Source: Escherichia coli (GTDB lineage Bacteria > Pseudomonadota > Gammaproteobacteria > Enterobacterales > Enterobacteriaceae). Taken from it: a stretch of 64,000 nt of DNA. Position 1 is the first letter of the stretch. Each line of letters begins with the position of its first letter. This document shows positions 5,484-64,000 of this stretch, piece by piece. The notes below the pieces were generated by a model that did no database searches, was not told the DNA's origin, and was given only the letters and a program-made list of their open reading frames with translations. Location of the stretch: NCBI RefSeq assembly GCF_030013595.1, contig NZ_CP122768.1; one strand, given 5' to 3'. Position numbers and translations under genes: made by a program.

Positions 5484-6111
5484 TATGTATTCCCTTGTGA
5501 TTATAATCTTCATGAATATATCAATAAGTGCTGTTATCCAAAAAAAAGCACATTTGGATACTATTCTATGAAGTTCATTTTATTTTAAAGATTACATGTA
5601 ACAAATGTATTTAAAAGATTTCAAAATGTTTCCAATCTGTTTAATATAATTCAGAATTATGAATTCTGAATATAAATATTCACGAATATTATGAATGCAT
5701 ATCAATATGTTATGAGTTGAGCGGAAACATAGGGAGTATCAATGATTGTTGTGCTAAACGGCTGGTGTGATCTCGCGCACATTAATGAAGGCATAAAAAA
5801 AGCCGGCATCATGCCGGCCCAAAAAATATAAACAAGACGATAAAAGGCTAATAACGGAAGCATCATGACACAGAATAATAAAAAGGGATAATTGTAATCA
5901 GTGCTAATATATTGATTGAATGAATTAATAAAGCCGATATCAAAGATAAATAAAATCGCTCAAAACGATTTTTCCTGTATTCACTGCCATTGCGCAAAAA
6001 TTATCTATTTGTTCAAAAAATGATTGAGTCTTGACTGGCTCATCCAATGTGGAAAAATGTGACTTTTATCACATAATAGTACTAAGTCTGAATTTTCCGG
6101 GTTATCTCAAA

Positions 6112-6414
6112 ATGGAATACGGTTCGACAAAGATGGAAGAGAGACTCACTCGCAGCCCTGGTGGCAAATTGGCTTTGTGGGCTTTCTATACATGGTGTGG
6201 CTATTTTGTCTGGGCAATGGCGCGTTACATCTGGGTGATGAGCCGGATCCCCGATGCCCCCGTGTCGGGATTTGAAAGCGATTTAGGCTCTACCGCGGGA
6301 AAGTGGTTAGGGGCACTGGTTGGCTTTTTATTTATGGCTCTGGTCGGGGCATTGTTAGGCAGCATTGCCTGGTACACCCGACCTCGTCCCGCACGTAGCA
6401 GACGCTATGAATAA
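6112..6414 (+). CDS. yedR: inner membrane protein
   Basis: ORF 6031..6414 opens on TTG; first ATG at 6112 (MEYGST); two hydrophobic helices. Confidence 0.7.
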
Positions 6415-6452
6415 AAACTGCTAAGGTTGCGACCCTTGGCAACGGAGCGCGT

Positions 6453-7148
6453 ATGGACGTACAACACTGGCAGGTACAGTTCGAAAACTGGTTGAAAAAC
6501 CATCATCAGCACCAGGACGCGGCCCATGACGTGTGTCATTTTCGCCGCGTCTGGGCTACGGCACAGAAGCTGGCGGCAGATGACGATGTCGATATGCTGG
6601 TGATTTTAACCGCCTGTTATTTTCACGATATTGTGAGCCTGGCGAAAGATCATCCGCAACGGCAGCGTTCTTCAATCCTGGCGGCAGAAGAGACGCGTCG
6701 CCTGCTCCGTGAAGAGTTCGTGCAATTTCCGGCGGAGAAAATTGAGGCCGTTTGTCATGCCATTGCCGCGCACAGTTTCAGCGCGCAAATCGCCCCCTTA
6801 ACAACGGAAGCTAAAATCGTCCAGGATGCGGATCGGCTGGAAGCCCTGGGGGCGATTGGCCTGGCGCGCGTGTTTGCCGTTTCAGGGGCATTGGGCGTGG
6901 CGCTGTTTGATGGCGAAGATCCGTTCGCACAGCATCGCCCGCTGGATGATAAACGCTACGCGCTGGATCATTTCCAGACTAAGTTGCTGAAGCTACCGCA
7001 AACCATGCAAACCGCAAGAGGCAAGCAGCTGGCGCAGCACAACGCGCAATTTTTAGTCGAGTTTATGGCGAAGCTCAGTGCCGAACTGGCGGGGGAGAAT
7101 GAAGGTGTCGATCACAAGGTGATAGATGCGTTTTCACCCGCGGGCTGA
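6453..7148 (+). CDS. yedJ: HD-domain phosphohydrolase
   Basis: 231-aa ORF with HD motif (CYFHDIV). Confidence 0.85.
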
Positions 7149-7214: not shown

Positions 7215-8633
7215 ATGCAGGAAAATATATCAGTAACCGATTTATACAGCACCGGGAATGCCGCACAGGCAATGCTGGAGAAACTGCTGCAAATTTATGA
7301 TGTTAAAACGCTGGTGGCGCAGCTTAATGGTGTGGGTGAGAATCACTGGAGCGCGGCAATTTTAAAACGTGCGCTGGCGAATGACTCGGCATGGCATCGT
7401 TTAAGTGAGAAAGAGTTCGCCCATCTGCAAACGTTGTTACCCAAACCACCGGCACATCATCCGCATTATGCGTTTCGCTTTATCGATCTATTTGCCGGAA
7501 TTGGCGGCATCCGTCGCGGTTTTGAATCGATTGGCGGACAGTGCGTGTTTACCAGCGAATGGAACAAACATGCGGTACGCACTTATAAAGCCAATCATTA
7601 TTGCGACCCGGCGACGCATCATTTTAATGAAGATATCCGCGACATCACCCTCAGCCATAAAGACGGCGTGAGTGATGAGGCGGCGGCGGAACATATTCGT
7701 CAACACATTCCTGAACACGATGTATTACTGGCGGGTTTTCCTTGTCAGCCATTTTCGCTGGCTGGCGTATCGAAAAAGAACTCGCTCGGGCGGGCGCATG
7801 GTTTTGCCTGCGATACCCAGGGCACGCTGTTCTTTGATGTGGTGCGCATTATCGACGCGCGTCGTCCGGCGATGTTTGTGCTCGAAAACGTCAAAAACCT
7901 GAAAAGTCACGATAAAGGAAAAACGTTCCGCATCATCATGCAGACGCTGGAGGAACTGGGCTATGACGTGGCTGATGCAGAAGATAACGGGCCGGACGAT
8001 CCGAAAATCATCGATGGTAAACATTTCCTGCCGCAGCACCGTGAACGCATCGTGCTGGTGGGGTTTCGTCGCGATCTGAATCTGAAAGCCGATTTTACCC
8101 TGCGTGATATCAGCGAATGTTTCCCTGCGCAGCGAGTGACGCTGGCCCAGCTGCTGGACCCGATGGTCGAGGCGAAATATATCCTGACGCCGGTGTTGTG
8201 GAAGTACCTCTATCGTTATGCGAAAAAACATCAGGCACGCGGTAACGGCTTCGGTTATGGAATGGTTTATCCGAACAATCCGCAAAGCGTCACGCGTACG
8301 CTGTCTGCGCGTTATTACAAAGATGGCGCGGAAATTTTAATCGATCGCGGTTGGGATATGGCCACGGGTGAGAAAGACTTTGACGATCCGCTGAATCATC
8401 AACATCGTCCACGTCGGTTAACGCCTCGGGAATGCGCGCGCTTAATGGGTTTTGAAGCGCCGGGAGAAGCGAAATTCCGCATTCCGGTTTCGGACACTCA
8501 GGCCTATCGCCAGTTCGGTAACTCGGTGGTCGTACCGGTCTTTGCCGCGGTGGCAAAACTGCTTGAGCCAAAAATCAAACAGGCGGTGGCGTTGCGTCAG
8601 CAAGAGGCACAACATGGCCGACGTTCACGATAA
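7215..8633 (+). CDS. dcm: DNA-cytosine C5 methyltransferase (CCWGG)
   Basis: 472-aa ORF; FxGxG SAM motif ([12 protein letters not shown]); catalytic PCQ ([11 protein letters not shown]). Confidence 0.95.
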
Positions 8634-57949: not shown

Positions 57950-58207
57950 ATGCAGACTCAATTAAAGGTTAAAGGCGGTTATAGTCATTTTTTCTTCGCC
58001 AATATTGAAGTCTCACAAAGAGAGTCAAATGGCGGTTTGGTTGTCGTTAGGGATGTTAATATACCTATTACAACAACAACTCTCTCTCTGTTAGAGAATT
58101 ACGCTGTAGGGCAGGTGTTGACGTTAGAACAAAAGAATGGCGATTTTTTTGATGTGTATTACGTTGGAACTGATGGGAATAACTTTCAGTTTTCAACGCA
58201 CTGCTAA
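57950..58207 (+). CDS. hypothetical phage protein; its 3' end lies in left copy of a ~200-bp direct repeat
   Basis: 85-aa ORF with GGAG RBS. Confidence 0.45.
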   Translation: MQTQLKVKGGYSHFFFANIEVSQRESNGGLVVVRDVNIPITTTTLSLLENYAVGQVLTLEQKNGDFFDVYYVGTDGNNFQFSTHC

Positions 58208-58310
58208 TTTATCAAGGCCCTGTGAGCAGGGCCTTCGAAAGCCTACTAAAGTCTGTTTCATAGAGAGAGTTATTTGCGATTAAAAAGGTATTTGGTCACG
58301 ACCAGCACGA
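58114..58310. repeat. left copy of diverged ~200-bp direct repeat
   Basis: Aligns to 63183..63374 at roughly 85% identity with short indels. Confidence 0.7.
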
Positions 58311-58419
58311 TAGAGAATACATCTTTCAAAGTACCGCCCATATAAAACAGTTACATATGCACTTGATGACTAAGCTGGCACCAGGTTAACACCATGCGCC
58401 AGCTTGAAGGAGACTTCAG

Positions 58420-58593
58420 TTATTGGTTTCTGAGGAAAGCGATTCTTGAAAGGGTCATTTGCGTCTGGCAGTCGACCATTTTCTTGACTTCAGCATCTGT
58501 TCCTTTCTTGACTTCAGCATCTGTTCCCTGCATTGAAACTTTACCGCACATAGCATCCTTAGTTTTGATCCACTGGCGCTGAGAAGGCAGCAA
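58420..58593 (-). pseudogene. 3' fragment of lipoprotein gene split by IS629
   Basis: Joining across the IS with one copy of the ACT target duplication restores one frame to TAA at 58420..58422. Confidence 0.65.
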
Positions 58594-58649
58594 CTTGAAC
58601 CGCCCCGGAAATCCTGGAGACTAAACTCCCTGAGAAAGAGGTAAACAGG

Positions 58650-58976
58650 ATGACTAAAAATACTCGTTTTTCCCCCGAAGTCCGTCAGCGGGCGATTCGT
58701 ATGGTTCTGGAAAGTCAGGATGAATATGACTCACAGTGGGCGGCAATTTGTTCCATTGCCCCAAAGATTGGCTGTACGCCGGAGACTCTGCGTGTCTGGG
58801 TTCGCCAGCATGAGCGGGATACCGGGGGCGGTGATGGTGGGCTCACCAGCGCTGAACGTCAGCGTCTGAAAGAGCTGGAACGTGAAAATCGTGAACTGCG
58901 CCGCAGTAACGATATCCTTCGCCAGGCTTCCGCTTATTTTGCGAAGGCGGAGTTCGACCGCCTCTGGAAAAAATGA
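58650..58976 (+). CDS. IS3-family transposase OrfA
   Basis: 108-aa [25 protein letters not shown] recognised as IS629/IS1203 OrfA. Confidence 0.9.
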
Positions 58977-59863
58977 TGCCACTGCTGGATAAGCTGCGTG
59001 AGCAGTACGGGGTCGGACCGGTATGTAGCGAACTGCATATTGCCCCGTCAACGTATTACCATTGTCAGCAACAGCGACATCATCCGGATAAACGCAGTGC
59101 CCGTGCGCAGCACGATGACTGGCTGAAGAAAGAGATACAGCGCGTATACGATGAAAATCACCAGGTATACGGTGTGCGTAAAGTCTGGCGTCAGTTGTTA
59201 CGGGAAGGTATCAGAGTGGCCAGATGCACTGTGGCACGTCTCATGGCAGTTATGGGACTTGCCGGTGTTCTCCGGGGTAAAAAGGTCCGCACTACCGTCA
59301 GCCGGAAAGCCGTTGCCGCAGGCGACCGCGTAAACCGTCAGTTCGTGGCAGAACGACCTGACCAGCTGTGGGTGGCTGATTTTACTTACGTCAGCACATG
59401 GCAGGGCTTCGTCTATGTGGCGTTTATCATTGATGTGTTTGCCGGATACATCGTGGGGTGGCGGGTCTCATCGTCTATGGAAACGACATTCGTGCTGGAT
59501 GCGCTGGAGCAGGCGTTGTGGGCCCGTCGTCCGTCTGGCACCATCCATCACAGCGATAAAGGCTCTCAGTATGTGTCACTGGCCTATACGGAGCGACTAA
59601 AAGAAGCCGGATTACTGGCATCAACAGGGAGTACAGGCGACTCGTATGACAACGCGATGGCTGAGAGCATCAATGGTCTTTACAAAGCGGAGGTAATACA
59701 CCGTAAGAGCTGGAAAAAACGTGCAGAAGTGGAACTGGCCACACTAACGTGGGTGGACTGGTATAACAATCGACGATTGCTGGGAAGGCTGGGCCATACT
59801 CCTCCGGCAGAAGCAGAAAAAGCTTATTATGCTTCCATCGGAAACGATGATCTGGCAGCCTGA
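58973..59863 (+). CDS. IS3-family transposase OrfB (DDE integrase-like)
   Basis: 296-aa ORF overlapping orfA in -1 frame. Confidence 0.9.
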
Positions 59864-59905
59864 GTTCACAGATAAAACACTCTCCAGGAAACCCGGGGCG
59901 GTTCA

Positions 59906-60680
59906 ACTCTTTTTTCTTCGCCGGGGTTAACTTGCTCCAGACGGTATTCAAATCAGAGTCAGCATTTGCAAATGCCATTCGGGACTGATCAAGGCTTTCA
60001 GATTTTTGCGGCTGAAGTTGTGCCTGCCTCTCTTTTTGCTTCTCCGCCTCATACCTGGCCTGTTCCTGTGCCCTGAGTTGCACCTGTTGTTCCGCTTCAA
60101 TTTGACTCTGTTGGGCATCCTTAGCCTGCTGGATTTTCTGCTGCTCAACGATCGGGTTGATAATGGAAAGCGATGTCAGTAAAGCGGCGCCCACTGATAT
60201 CGGATTATCAGAAGAGGTTTTTACAAAAACGTTTTTCTGATCGTCGGTCGCCTGCACGGTGTAGGTGATACGCCTTGAAAAGGCGTTTGCGTTGTTCTCC
60301 AAAAACAGATTTTCCATTTGCTTATCGAGATTACGATTAAAATTCTTTCTGTAAGCATCTGAAAGCTGGACGTACTCGTTCGCAGGTAGAGTCATCGTCA
60401 CGGTCCCTTCACAAGTTTTCATTGTGCTGCCCGTGTCACTTGATGTTGTGGAGATTTCAGAGACGGCTAGTTTGATCTTGTCCAGTGTGCTTCGTTTGGT
60501 CTGATTAGTGACATCAGGGTATTTATCGACCTGTTCAGAGAGTCCTTCATAAGCAGATTTTTTTAATAAATCCATGAGAGCTGATTGGGTCATTTCCGAA
60601 GAACAACCGATCTCATCTTTTTTGTTATCACAGCCTGTAAGGGCAATGGCGAGTAAGAGTACTGAGTATTTTAATCTCAT
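59906..60680 (-). pseudogene. 5' fragment of lipoprotein gene split by IS629
   Basis: ORF 59670..60680 has lipobox LTGC; after codon 258 it reads into the IS629 right end. Confidence 0.7.
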
Positions 60681-61436
60681 GAATTCCCTTTAGAGTAAGG
60701 ATTGGTTTTTAAGACGCGGTCTGTAATCAGTTCCGAGAGCTACAGTAAACAACGCTGAGCACTGAACGCATCACAGGCAAGGTAAAAGGTGATATCGGCA
60801 AAGGCTGTGAAACCTTTAATTCAACAGATGGGAACGGTATGCACAGGATCCTGTAACGACGCTCCCAAAACTGGAAACCTGTAAGGCATGTTTTCGCTGC
60901 TGAACTTAATATACGAACCTGCACTATCATGAACATATTTTATATCGTTATACCCCGAGTGATTGTGCCCGGCAATGGATAGTGTCCTGGAGGAATTATT
61001 TCTAATGTAAAAGGAAGATATTTAATTTCGATGTGGGATTATTACCTGTCTATAAGAACAATGACTTTATCTGGCAGTAAGCAGACATCTATTAGCTTAC
61101 TGAAGGGGGGCTGTGATTTGACCATTAACGGCATGAGATATATTGTCTATTGGTGATTGTTCTGAGGCCGATATCACGTTAACGACCAAGTAAAATAACA
61201 TGAAAAATTATTTATTAATGATTGCCAGCATTAAATGTAGTGATACCTCATTAGCAGGGTGCTCCGCAATGACTGCGATGAACTAAAAAATCAGTCATAA
61301 CCATGAAAAAAACAAGTGTATCAGCGAAATTAAATCTGGTGAAAGCATTTAATTACTTGTTAATGACGCAATAAAAACATACTATGGAAATGTAACAGCT
61401 AATCTACAGTTCTTGTCAATAGGGGCGCACAAGAAA

Positions 61437-62027
61437 ATGTTAAATGAATTTAAGGAAAAGCTACTATCCGACGATATCCGCGATGTCTACCAACGATACC
61501 TTTTAGGACATGACATCTGGTATTTTCGGGAACAAAAAAAATCAATAACCTTTGCTAAAGATTATGATGAGTTTAAGCTATATATGTCTAAGAAGCTTGA
61601 AATTCATGTAAATAATATTGCAATTGTTGGAAGTGCTAAGATGGGATTCAGCTTGAGCCCTGATAAAAATTATCGAACATTTAACGATGAGTCAGATATA
61701 GACTTGGTTTTAGTATCCGACAGAATTTATAAATCTTCCTGGATGGCATTTATTGAATTACAATCAAAGAATTATTTGCCTGTATATGCTCCTGTAGCTA
61801 AAAATATTTTCAAAGGATTCGTGTCATTGAAGGAGTTAGATATTAGAGTCGATTTTTTTAATAAATGGTCCCGTAACGTTGAACCATTAAAAAAAGACAT
61901 TCAAACTATTTTTGGAATACCTAACGACATCAACTACAGAATTTATGACTCTTGGGAGTCCGTTGAACGCTATCACATAGCTGGGTTGAATAGTCTAAAA
62001 GATAAGTTACAAGGACAATTGATATGA
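61437..62027 (+). CDS. small Pol-beta-superfamily nucleotidyltransferase-like protein
   Basis: ORF 61413..62027 opens on TTG, first ATG 61437; IVGSAKMGFS...ESDIDLVLV fits the GS...DxD pattern; low GC; stop overlaps next start (ATGA). Confidence 0.65.
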   Translation: MLNEFKEKLLSDDIRDVYQRYLLGHDIWYFREQKKSITFAKDYDEFKLYMSKKLEIHVNNIAIVGSAKMGFSLSPDKNYRTFNDESDIDLVLVSDRIYKSSWMAFIELQSKNYLPVYAPVAKNIFKGFVSLKELDIRVDFFNKWSRNVEPLKKDIQTIFGIPNDINYRIYDSWESVERYHIAGLNSLKDKLQGQLI

Positions 62028-63082
62028 GAGCTATTGATCTAATTAAAGTTGAATCGAAAGACATTAAATGGTTGACGGATAATTTGAAATCAGGTGTTAT
62101 TACAGTTGATAATTCATATCAGAGAAAATATATCTGGCAGCAAAAAGACCAAGTGGCCTTAATTGAGACAATATTAATTGGCTACCCAATCCCTGAGATT
62201 TACCTTTGGGCAAATAATACTGATCCTGACACTGGAGATACTAAATATTCAATTGTAGATGGACAGCAAAGGCTAACCACAATCCAGCGATATTTAAATG
62301 ATGAGTTTAAGTTAAGCAAAGCAGCTATAGATGATAAAGAAGCCGACTATAGTGGGAAAATTTTTTCAGAATTGTCGGCAGATAACAAACGTGATTTTTG
62401 GCGATACCAATTCTCATCCAGATTTATTAATGAATCATTGAGATATGATGAGATTGCAAAGTTATTTTTACGTCTAAATAGAACAAATACTACGTTAAAT
62501 CCTCAAGAACTTCGTAATGCTGAATTTAATGGCGAGTTTTTAAGATTAGCCGAAGAAATTGCACAAAATGAATTTTGGGATAATTATAAGATATTTACTC
62601 AGTCAGATATCCGTCGGATGCAAGACATTCAATTCATCAGCACATTATTGATTTTCTTACGAATGGGTATTGAGCAGGATAATACACAAAAATCAATTAA
62701 TCGAGTGTATGATCAATACAATGAGAATTACCCTGAGGCGACTGAGGACAGAATTATCTTTAACGAAGTGTTAAGGATCATATCTCAAATTATCAACAAT
62801 AAACAAGTATTAGAATCAGTTGTAAAGAAAAAAGGCCATTTGTATTTTATATTTGTGCTGGCATACTATTATTTACAGCTTAGTAAATCTAAGCTTGTTG
62901 ATATGAATGTTATTAGTTCAAAGCTCGAGGATTTTTTTAATATTTATGAGTTAAATGAACAAGATAACCCCCATCCACTGGTTGAGGAATATAGATTCCT
63001 CAGCCAAGAGGGTTCAAAGAAGAGTCATAACAGACAGCGTAGATTTGATATTTTGAAAGAATTTTGCTCTTTACATGATTAA
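62024..63082 (+). CDS. DUF262 (ParB-like, GmrSD N-terminal type) protein; no recognisable nuclease domain
   Basis: 352-aa ORF with YQRKYIW and IVDGQQRLTT motifs; helical C-terminal half without HNH/DUF1524 motifs. Confidence 0.75.
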   Translation: MRAIDLIKVESKDIKWLTDNLKSGVITVDNSYQRKYIWQQKDQVALIETILIGYPIPEIYLWANNTDPDTGDTKYSIVDGQQRLTTIQRYLNDEFKLSKAAIDDKEADYSGKIFSELSADNKRDFWRYQFSSRFINESLRYDEIAKLFLRLNRTNTTLNPQELRNAEFNGEFLRLAEEIAQNEFWDNYKIFTQSDIRRMQDIQFISTLLIFLRMGIEQDNTQKSINRVYDQYNENYPEATEDRIIFNEVLRIISQIINNKQVLESVVKKKGHLYFIFVLAYYYLQLSKSKLVDMNVISSKLEDFFNIYELNEQDNPHPLVEEYRFLSQEGSKKSHNRQRRFDILKEFCSLHD

Positions 63083-63182
63083 ATGACGAAAGTGGGTTGT
63101 TTATAAGAATTGAATAAACAACCCATCATTTTAATGTACTCTGAATCCTCTCATTCTTAGTGAAATATTGTTTTTAGAACAC

Positions 63183-63374
63183 GTATTGACGTTAGAACAA
63201 AAAATAGATTTTTTTGTGATGTATTACGTTGGAGTTGATGGGATAATTATATGTTTTCAATACATTGTTAATTTATCAAGACCCTGCGACTAAGGTGTTC
63301 GAAAATCGACTAAAGTCTGTTTCATAGAGAGAGTTACTTGCGTTTAAAAAGGTATTTGGTCACGACCAACACGA
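63183..63374. repeat. right copy of diverged ~200-bp direct repeat (decayed copy of 3' end of 57950..58207 gene)
   Basis: Aligns to 58114..58310; reading frame broken by stops and indels. Confidence 0.7.
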
Positions 63375-63603
63375 GGCCGAATACCTCAGTTTAAGTACCG
63401 CTCATGTACAACAGTAACGTTTGCTGATAGTGTCGCATTATCTTGCAGAGGACGCAGGTTAAATAGAACAAGCATATGTACCTGGTTTTTGTAATATTGG
63501 GTATAACATATGCTTTATAGGAGCGCGCTCAATGACCAACCGAGAAAGAATCTCCTGACAGATACAGTTATTTTCACCCTCTCCATAACATAAGGGAGTT
63601 TTT

Positions 63604-64000
63604 ATGTCGGAAGTGAGTATCGTAGAAGACGCCCCACGCCCAGTAGTCGCCGAATTGGCAGATCTGTTACAAGCACAACCATTTCATCAGAATCAATATG
63701 ATAACTTATGTCGCTTTATGATTTATTTTTCCCTGGCTGAATCAAAGTTAACATCAATGGCTGCTGGCCTTGGTAGAACTGACGCACTGGCACAGGAACT
63801 GGTTGTGCATAACGGCATGGACAGTCAGACCATAGATGATTGCTATCGTTATTTTATACGACGCTATCGAGACAGCCCTGATAGCGATTACCGCTTCAAT
63901 AAACTGGCCCCGCCTGAGTATGTTAAGAATGCAATCAGAGAACGCTTTGTTACGCTACTTCAGATACAGTCTCCAACAATTGAAGATAAAATCAGCTTTG
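63604..64000 (+). CDS. hypothetical phage protein, 3' end beyond window
   Basis: Open frame from ATG 63604 (MSEVSIVEDAPRPVVAELADLL) with AGGGAG RBS, no stop before window end. Confidence 0.5.
   Translation, partial: MSEVSIVEDAPRPVVAELADLLQAQPFHQNQYDNLCRFMIYFSLAESKLTSMAAGLGRTDALAQELVVHNGMDSQTIDDCYRYFIRRYRDSPDSDYRFNKLAPPEYVKNAIRERFVTLLQIQSPTIEDKISF

Follow-up and report, generated by a model that had tools for sequence, protein, structure and literature searches.

In a 64,000-nucleotide stretch of Escherichia coli contig NZ_CP122768.1 (assembly GCF_030013595.1), referred to here in its entirety as the window, two adjacent genes, gene 1 and gene 2 (Table 1), are translationally coupled and are almost always inherited together as one unit. 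Gene 1 appears, from its sequence and predicted structure, to encode a small nucleotidyltransferase (NTase) of the Pol-beta superfamily, akin to the minimal nucleotidyltransferases (MNTs) and with an intact GS/DxD centre, the relationship being remote but consistent. The gene 2 product is, as judged from its sequence, an NsnA-like protein in which a ParB-type DUF262 NTPase domain, with its three nucleoside triphosphate (NTP) motifs intact, is followed by a helical domain; neither protein contains a nuclease. The best reading of the pair, inferred from context as regards both role and mechanism, is a DUF262-based defence with a new partner chemistry and a three-gene form resembling restriction-modification.

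A translationally coupled pair inherited as one unit

The stop codon of gene 1 and the start codon of gene 2 overlap in an ATGA, and the Shine-Dalgarno sequence AAGGA, embedded in the end of gene 1, lies 8 nt ahead of the gene 2 ATG. In related loci, too, the two genes overlap or are separated by a few bases. The ATG assigned here to gene 1 is the start annotated by RefSeq in a 99.8%-identical E. coli copy, an in-frame TTG at 61413 being an alternative. The GC content across both genes is 32-35%, against about 50% in the neighbouring prophage genes, so that the two overlapping low-GC genes announced by the original prediction are found as claimed. Directly 3′ of the gene 2 stop, a 13-bp hairpin likely marks the end of the operon, as suggested by its RNA fold (−16 kcal/mol, z = −3.45), which none of 200 shuffled sequences equalled; a consensus terminator scan overlooked it because its loop is 9 nt long. 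A promoter scan 5′ of gene 1 returned nothing exceeding the shuffled background. The AT-rich region 5′ of gene 1 (61210-61380) also holds two tiny open reading frames (ORFs), one of 28 aa (MKNYLLMIASIKC...) and one of 23 aa (MKKTSVSAKLNL...).

Gene 2 directly follows gene 1 on the same strand in all of the 25 loci fetched first, which comprise the E. coli lambdoid prophage, P2-like prophages, 12 IMG/VR viral contigs, and loci of Ferruginibacter, Bacillus, Variovorax, Paenibacillus, Dokdonia, and Massilia. Furthermore, a scan of species representatives (one genome per species, GTDB r220) recovered the adjacent pair in 61 of 69 loci. The pair extends over at least ten phyla and is found in Gamma-, Alpha-, and Betaproteobacteria, Bacteroidota, Bacillota, Actinomycetota, Planctomycetota, Nitrospirota, Synergistota, Acidobacteriota, Ignavibacteria, and Cloacimonadota. 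Both partners diverge in parallel, since their pairwise identities correlate with r = 0.89 across 77 loci and none of 999 Mantel permutations reached this value. Because both proteins have many homologues and their adjacency recurs in more than 80 independent loci, these genes are far more than chance ORFs.

An ORF apparently fusing the NTase to the DUF262 protein in the IMG/VR contig 2910832237_000010 (locus L022, 5806-7725) differs from its near-identical relative L021 solely by two 1-nt deletions in A runs and was left out of the evidence because it is probably a homopolymer assembly error at the gene junction. Some other loci have one partner broken by frameshifts next to an intact one, the broken gene being gene 1 in L013 and L034 (Massilia) and in L033 (Pseudomonas neustonica), and gene 2 in L053 (Anaerococcus). 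These splits, which could be real decay or assembly indels, have a bearing on the possible toxicity of either protein by itself.

Sequence and structure of the two partners

The minimal nucleotidyltransferase signature GS...DxD, which the original prediction had read in gene 1, is borne out by conservation and by structure. Residues 62-93 read IVGSAKMGFS...ESDIDLVLV, with VGS at positions 64-66 and SDIDLV at positions 86-91, and G65, S66, D87, and D89 occur in 84-85 of the 86 relatives. The core hhGSxKxGxS...F...SDxD is likewise retained in 84-85 of 86 distinct family members, distant ones included, and G65, S72, P75, S86, D87, and D89 are invariant in the gene 1 alignment. As for a third catalytic carboxylate, this alignment contains no further invariant Asp or Glu; the strand at 128-130 reads F-V-S, and D171 and E174 are partly conserved. 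The predicted model of gene 1 (predicted local distance difference test score, pLDDT, of 95) has an alpha/beta fold with the core alpha-beta-alpha-beta-alpha-beta arrangement of NTases, not the helical bundle of HEPN proteins, and its first structural matches are minimal nucleotidyltransferases. The best of these are of the MNT type, among them 8xeh_E, the MNT from a HEPN-MNT complex, and 5yep_A, an MNT antitoxin. Among the three kinships first suggested, gene 1 is thus closest to MNT, and not to CD-NTase/SMODS or AbiEii. A Foldseek search against AFDB50 returned 158 proteins of about 200 aa, many of them labelled nucleotidyltransferase.

Sequence profiles say much less. Gene 1 gives nothing significant against Pfam, NCBIfam, or PADLOC (no family of PADLOC-DB v2.0.0 at E ≤ 1), a profile search of the PDB with the gene 1 alignment gave nothing relevant, and the sole profile match is phrog_32008, a family of unknown function (7e-10). 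Of the checks proposed for this protein, the fold search recovered NTases and the NTP_transf_2 profile did not match the window protein. When 57 relatives were scanned singly, 12 showed sub-threshold matches to NTP_transf_2 (E ≤ 0.1, best E 1.9e-3); none of the 57 reached E ≤ 0.001, and no other Pfam family recurred among them. The family is sizeable: 121 relatives of about 195-210 aa were found among 5.8 billion proteins, none with a Pfam domain, and when 1.84 billion cluster representatives were searched exhaustively with a profile, 1,543 gene 1 clusters passed E ≤ 1e-3 and 874 of them passed E ≤ 1e-10 (clusters at 50% identity). The isoelectric points, near neutral in the gene 1 family and acidic in the gene 2 family, are not informative.

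The spacing between GS and DxD is 20 residues in gene 1, exceeding that of typical MNTs. This longer spacing would suit a CBASS-like scheme (cyclic-oligonucleotide-based antiphage signalling system), in which the NTase would make a nucleotide second messenger upon infection and the DUF262 protein would bind it in its NTP pocket and act as the effector; indeed, the DUF262 pocket binds nucleotides (PMC12065111). The pair differs from CBASS in that a CD-NTase/SMODS enzyme together with a nucleotide-activated effector is not what it contains, and we regard this scheme as very improbable. It differs from AbiE as well, where a DUF1814 NTase toxin is combined with an AbiEi antitoxin. The HEPN-MNT type VII toxin-antitoxin systems (HI0073/HI0074, SO_3166/SO_3165) are nearer in fold, but gene 1 is roughly double an MNT in size, has extra N- and C-terminal helices, and shows no connection to it in sequence profiles; moreover, its partner is a DUF262 protein in which the conserved positions include no R-x(4-6)-H motif.

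The three DUF262 motifs, as defined in PMC12065111, are readily located in gene 2 (Table 1), where YQRKYIW begins at residue 32, and QRxxxW, DGQQR, and F-x-R-x-N are all retained in at least 74 of the 77 gene 2 homologues. Residues 22-168 match the Pfam family GmrSD_N (1e-24), and the top structural matches are BrxU and SspE, so that profile and structure searches agree on the DUF262 assignment. The C-terminal half is helical, and these searches found no DUF1524/HNH nuclease domain and no recognisable toxic domain, in keeping with the original prediction of DUF262 motifs lacking a C-terminal nuclease; longer gene 2 variants at other loci are likewise devoid of a nuclease domain. These features set gene 2 apart from GmrSD, BrxU, and SspE, with which it shares a DUF262 domain at the N terminus and its QRxxxW, DGQQR, and FxxxN motifs, since these proteins carry a C-terminal DUF1524/HNH (His-Me finger) nuclease whereas gene 2 is a separate polypeptide with an NTase partner.

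More specifically, sequence comparison groups gene 2 with the NsnA-like proteins of Menshen. Residues 9-348 of its 352 align with positions 48-379 of the 385 in the PADLOC NsnA profile (4.3e-41), while the match to PD-T4-2_A is weaker (2.5e-19, residues 22-312) and those to other DUF262-containing models are weaker still. Menshen (NsnABC; Millman 2022) has been dissected in PMC12065111, NsnA being its DUF262 + ParBDB component. Gene 2 shares with NsnA this architecture of a ParB-DUF262 domain and a helical ParBDB-like domain, and presumably a function as DNA sensor with an NTP switch. On the other hand, the pair lacks both the ABC-ATPase NsnB (AAA_15/DUF3696) and NsnC (inPIN with a nuclease/toxin domain), and it has instead a coupled NTase gene on the 5′ side and a hairpin closing the operon after gene 2. 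No NsnB was found 3′ of gene 2 in the window, where the ORF at 63604 was not compared with NsnB, and no gene is conserved 3′ of gene 2 in related loci; as for NsnC, the window operon stops at two genes, and gene 1 matches no PADLOC family at E ≤ 1. Membership in Menshen was ruled out by the absence of NsnB and NsnC.

The full-length match to NsnA could still mean that gene 2 is an orphan NsnA left by a decayed Menshen after the loss of NsnB and NsnC, with gene 1 as an unrelated neighbour. The recurrence of the arrangement in more than 80 loci of many phyla, with co-divergence of both partners, argues against this scenario, as do the hairpin after gene 2, with nothing NsnB-like in the window, and the gene order of Menshen itself, where NsnB and NsnC lie 3′ of NsnA and no small gene lies 5′ (PMC12065111). 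Because of the synteny data, a decayed Menshen is effectively refuted.

Proposed function and its alternatives

We propose that the pair is a self-contained, horizontally mobile two-gene module that would protect the lysogen against other phages or mobile DNA, with the DUF262 protein as sensor and the NTase as output, a proposal to which we give not quite an even chance of being right. The DUF262 protein would be a sensor and NTP-driven switch reading a feature of the DNA, probably its cytosine-modification state. Once licensed, the NTase would be the catalytic output and would transfer a nucleoside monophosphate (NMP) onto tRNA, another RNA, a DNA end, or a protein, thereby halting the infection. 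It would thus take the place that belongs to HEPN RNases in PD-T4-2 and in the ParB + HEPN (+ methylase) operons (PMC3710099), to NsnB/NsnC in Menshen, and to the DUF1524 nuclease of GmrSD, BrxU, and SspE. The role given to the DUF262 protein follows that of sensor/NTPase described in SspE and GmrSD and predicted in Menshen (PMC12065111). The role given to the NTase borrows from AbiE/MenAT (AbiEii, MenT; DUF1814), where an NTase is the growth-arresting effector. In favour of the proposal are the strict synteny and co-divergence of the partners, the retention of catalytic motifs on both proteins, the fold evidence, and the match of gene 2 to the NsnA and PD-T4-2_A profiles.

Some genomic contexts are consistent with defence. 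In P2-like prophages, an E. coli homologue of gene 1 (P0048, 49% identity) occupies, together with its DUF262 partner, the interval from gpA to the portal gene; since the P2 gpA-gpQ interval is a published defence hotspot of P2 (PMC9122126), this position places the pair in that hotspot. In Ferruginibacter, a gene with a TIR domain is found about 3 kb 3′ of the pair. The window pair, as low-GC cargo of a lambdoid prophage between direct repeats, has a context of this kind too.

The link to cytosine modification is proposed because one large clade has its own C5 methylase in the operon, which implies self/non-self discrimination through cytosine methylation. In about 22 loci (L006-L008, L021-L022, L035, L037-L039, L041-L051, L053, L056), an orthologous C5 cytosine methylase gene stands directly 5′ of gene 1, with gaps of −13 to +4 nt. 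This clade is mostly made of Bacillota, with a Synergistes metagenome-assembled genome (MAG) and one MAG labelled Proteobacteria. The methylases of Bacillus and of a viral contig share 51% identity, against only 25% with another C5 methylase of the same element; in both copies inspected (L006 and L022), motif IV reads GPPCPDFS instead of the usual PCQ. The best PADLOC profiles for the methylase are MTase_II and DruM. The three-gene operon of Bacillus is an island with guaA on one side and a purine permease gene on the other, and two Bacteroidota loci have a different C5 methylase at the equivalent position. Most loci, that of the window included, have no methylase or other modification gene with the pair, so that the window copy would target modified or foreign DNA, or depend on a host methylase. 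The only C5-methylase-like ORF in the window (7215-8633, 472 aa; E 1.2e-14 with a profile built here) lies 52 kb from the pair; from its size and context, it is probably the host dcm, and it may be relevant should cytosine methylation be what the module reads.

The more detailed version of this proposal, in which the DUF262 NTPase reads cytosine methylation, self is marked by a dedicated C5 methylase in the three-gene form, and the output is nucleotidyl transfer and not a nuclease, is possible but doubtful. The output could then be, for example, the NMP-capping of DNA ends or tRNA, or the AMPylation of a protein of the phage or of the host. Such a system would amount to restriction-modification without a restriction nuclease, and the two-gene forms found in prophages and in the P2 hotspot would be derivatives that lack the methylase and are directed against modified or foreign DNA. 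The resemblance to restriction-modification resides in the C5 methylase that the mainly Bacillota clade and the two Bacteroidota loci carry in the operon, while the operon of the window differs by having no cognate DNA methyltransferase.

The same methylases could point away from defence altogether. The pair would then be a module for DNA modification or metabolism, for instance in counter-defence of the element, in which a ParB-like NTPase aids a DNA-acting enzyme and, in some lineages, acts together with the C5 methylase. DndB and DpdB have such assisting roles in the Dnd and Dpd modification systems. Besides the operons shared with a methylase in about 22 loci, the carriage of the pair on prophages and other mobile elements would fit this scheme, as would a weak match of gene 2 to the DGQHR domain model TIGR03187 (E = 3.6e-4), which is below the cut-off of the model. 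It is weakened by the many methylase-free loci, by the profiles closest to gene 2, which are those of the defence proteins NsnA and PD-T4-2_A, and by the presence of one version in a P2 hotspot that houses defence cargo. Furthermore, virulent phages are the typical carriers of genes for counter-defence and hypermodification, whereas no gene 1 homologue was found among 50,697 deposited phage genomes. We consider this explanation quite unlikely.

Distant relatives of gene 1 bear on which partner delivers the output in the proposed defence module. These NTases measure about 260-290 aa, are extended at the N terminus, and have no DUF262 partner, which suggests that the NTase is able to serve as an output module on its own. 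One of them (L070, about 5900-6720) is located between HmaB (1e-92) and HmaC (3e-79), in an ORF arrangement that L071 (also about 5900-6720) shares by sequence, and another (L073, 5803-6576) is beside a pair made of SIR2-APAZ and a short prokaryotic Argonaute (short-pAgo). The NTase embedded in Hma may be an unrecognised single-gene candidate.

The main rival assigns the opposite roles to the two proteins. In this MNT-style model, the NTase would be a regulator that NMPylates (e.g., AMPylates) the DUF262 protein and so holds it off, and the DUF262 protein would be the effector, for example a ParB-like clamp or a nickase blocking DNA transactions; infection would lift the modification, within either a defence or an addiction (toxin-antitoxin) module. 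MNTs are protein-AMPylating antitoxins acting on HEPN toxins, and this model draws on the MNT-type structural matches of gene 1, on the NTase-first and translationally coupled gene order, which resembles that of MNT-HEPN operons, and on the co-divergence of the partners, which suits a direct enzyme-substrate pair. In addition, near-invariant Tyr and Thr residues of gene 2 (Y128, Y323, T49, and T154) are possible acceptor sites. However, gene 2 has no recognisable toxic domain, the distant NTases occur without a DUF262 protein to regulate, and DUF262 is a sensor/NTPase and not a killer in every characterised relative (PMC12065111, PMC10952713). The Massilia and Pseudomonas loci in which gene 1 is disrupted and gene 2 intact also go against a regulator, with little weight because sequencing indels are possible. 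Altogether, we judge the regulator model unlikely, albeit as the foremost of the alternatives.

Several observations weigh against a defence module with the NTase as output. The closest structural relatives of gene 1 are antitoxins rather than toxins, and its upstream place is the antitoxin position in HEPN-MNT operons, both of which favour the regulator model. Many loci have no recognisable defence neighbours, and PADLOC scans around ten further proteins were mixed, with no uniform defence-island signal. The module is also rare: the window version is present in 2 of 5,426 complete E. coli genomes and the P2-hotspot version in none of them, only two plasmids carry a gene 1 homologue, and the deposited phage genomes mentioned above contain none.

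The pairing was initially put forward as one that matches no named system, and this holds, as gene 1 is without a model in PADLOC-DB v2.0.0 and the pair fits none of the named systems; moreover, no description of a DUF262 + nucleotidyltransferase system was found in PMC open-access full text and bioRxiv. A close two-gene design is that of PD-T4-2, reportedly dating from the 2022 work of Vassallo. DUF262/ParB-like sensors recur in immunity (GmrSD, BrxU, SspE, Menshen, Dazbog, and PD-T4-2), and to our knowledge every one described as an immune sensor is coupled to a nuclease or an RNase. Operons combining ParB, HEPN, and in some cases a DNA methylase have been catalogued by Anantharaman et al. 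2013 (PMC3710099). The pair resembles these operons and PD-T4-2 in having two genes and a nuclease-less DUF262 protein, and differs from PD-T4-2 in that the partner is a predicted Pol-beta-type NTase located upstream instead of the HEPN RNase PD-T4-2_B. Among other candidates considered, WonAB of the Vibrio WASA-1 prophage consists of an ABC-ATPase and a PD-(D/E)xK nuclease and is unrelated, as is GrwAB, a GmrSD-like restriction system; the published descriptions of Hailong, HEC-05/06, and GmrS1/GmrSD2 do not cover the pair.

If the pair is a defence system, it would add a new effector chemistry to the DUF262 chassis and provide a small two-protein model (about 550 aa in total) for the signalling from DUF262 to its partner. 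Its methylase-linked and methylase-free forms would offer a natural comparison and make the sensed DNA feature experimentally tractable. It would also account for an unannotated cargo slot of prophages and of the P2 hotspot that current defence finders skip.

Prophage setting and cargo block

The sequence around the pair identifies it as cargo of a lambdoid prophage, placed between the replication module and the module for late control, in line with the prophage accessory slot first suggested. On its 5′ side in the window, PHROGs matches designate an integrase, an exonuclease, a repressor, a CII-like protein, an O-like initiator, and a DnaB-like helicase, and on its 3′ side, the annotated E. 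coli copy has the Q antiterminator, lysis genes, and the terminase. The cargo block consists of an IS3 element, a minus-strand LprI-family gene, and the gene pair, and is bracketed by direct repeats (Table 1) with 87% mean column identity in a pairwise alignment. Judged from their sequence, these repeats look like the scar of a cassette insertion or exchange by recombination. The region of the right repeat contains a remnant ORF (63168-63293), and the prophage ORF at 63604, 3′ of it, has no PHROG match; in related loci, the homologous ORF is 182 aa long.

Table 1. Features of the gene pair and its surroundings in the window
Feature	Position	Strand	Description
Left direct repeat	58107..58360	.	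About 250 bp; from a repeat search, 80-86% identity; brackets the cargo block
Gene 1	61437..62027	+	196 aa from ATG; predicted small MNT-like nucleotidyltransferase
Predicted NTase active-site codons	61629..61703	+	G65-S66-x-K68-x-G70-x-S72 ... S86-D87-x-D89
Coupling junction	62011..62027	+	Shine-Dalgarno AAGGA at 62011-62015 within the end of gene 1; ATGA overlap at 62024-62027 (read from the sequence)
Gene 2	62024..63082	+	352 aa; NsnA-like, DUF262 (ParB-like NTPase) domain and helical C-terminal domain, without nuclease domain
DUF262 motif I, QRKYIW (Q33, R34, W38)	62120..62137	+	Q33, R34, and W38 in 77/77 homologues
DUF262 motif II, DGQQR (D79-R83)	62258..62272	+	Predicted NTP-binding/hydrolysis centre; 74-77/77 homologues
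DUF262 motif III, FLRLN (F148, R150, N152)	62465..62479	+	75-76/77 homologues
13-bp hairpin	63092..63126	+	Likely intrinsic terminator, directly 3′ of the gene 2 stop
Right direct repeat	63175..63424	.	Degenerate remnant, corresponding to ORF 57950-58207 (3′ end) and the sequence downstream of it

The IS3-family element (58595-59906) has 26-bp inverted repeats, orfA at 58650-58976, and orfB at 58973-59863. The LprI-family gene, on the minus strand, carries this insertion in its 3′ end, and its ORF (59670-60680) continues into the insertion sequence. In the E. coli relative L001, the LprI-family gene is intact and a different IS3 copy is located 3′ of the pair. Just 5′ of the left end of the IS3 element, the window has a perfect 24-bp tandem duplication at 58480-58527 (TTTCTTGACTTCAGCATCTGTTCC, two copies).

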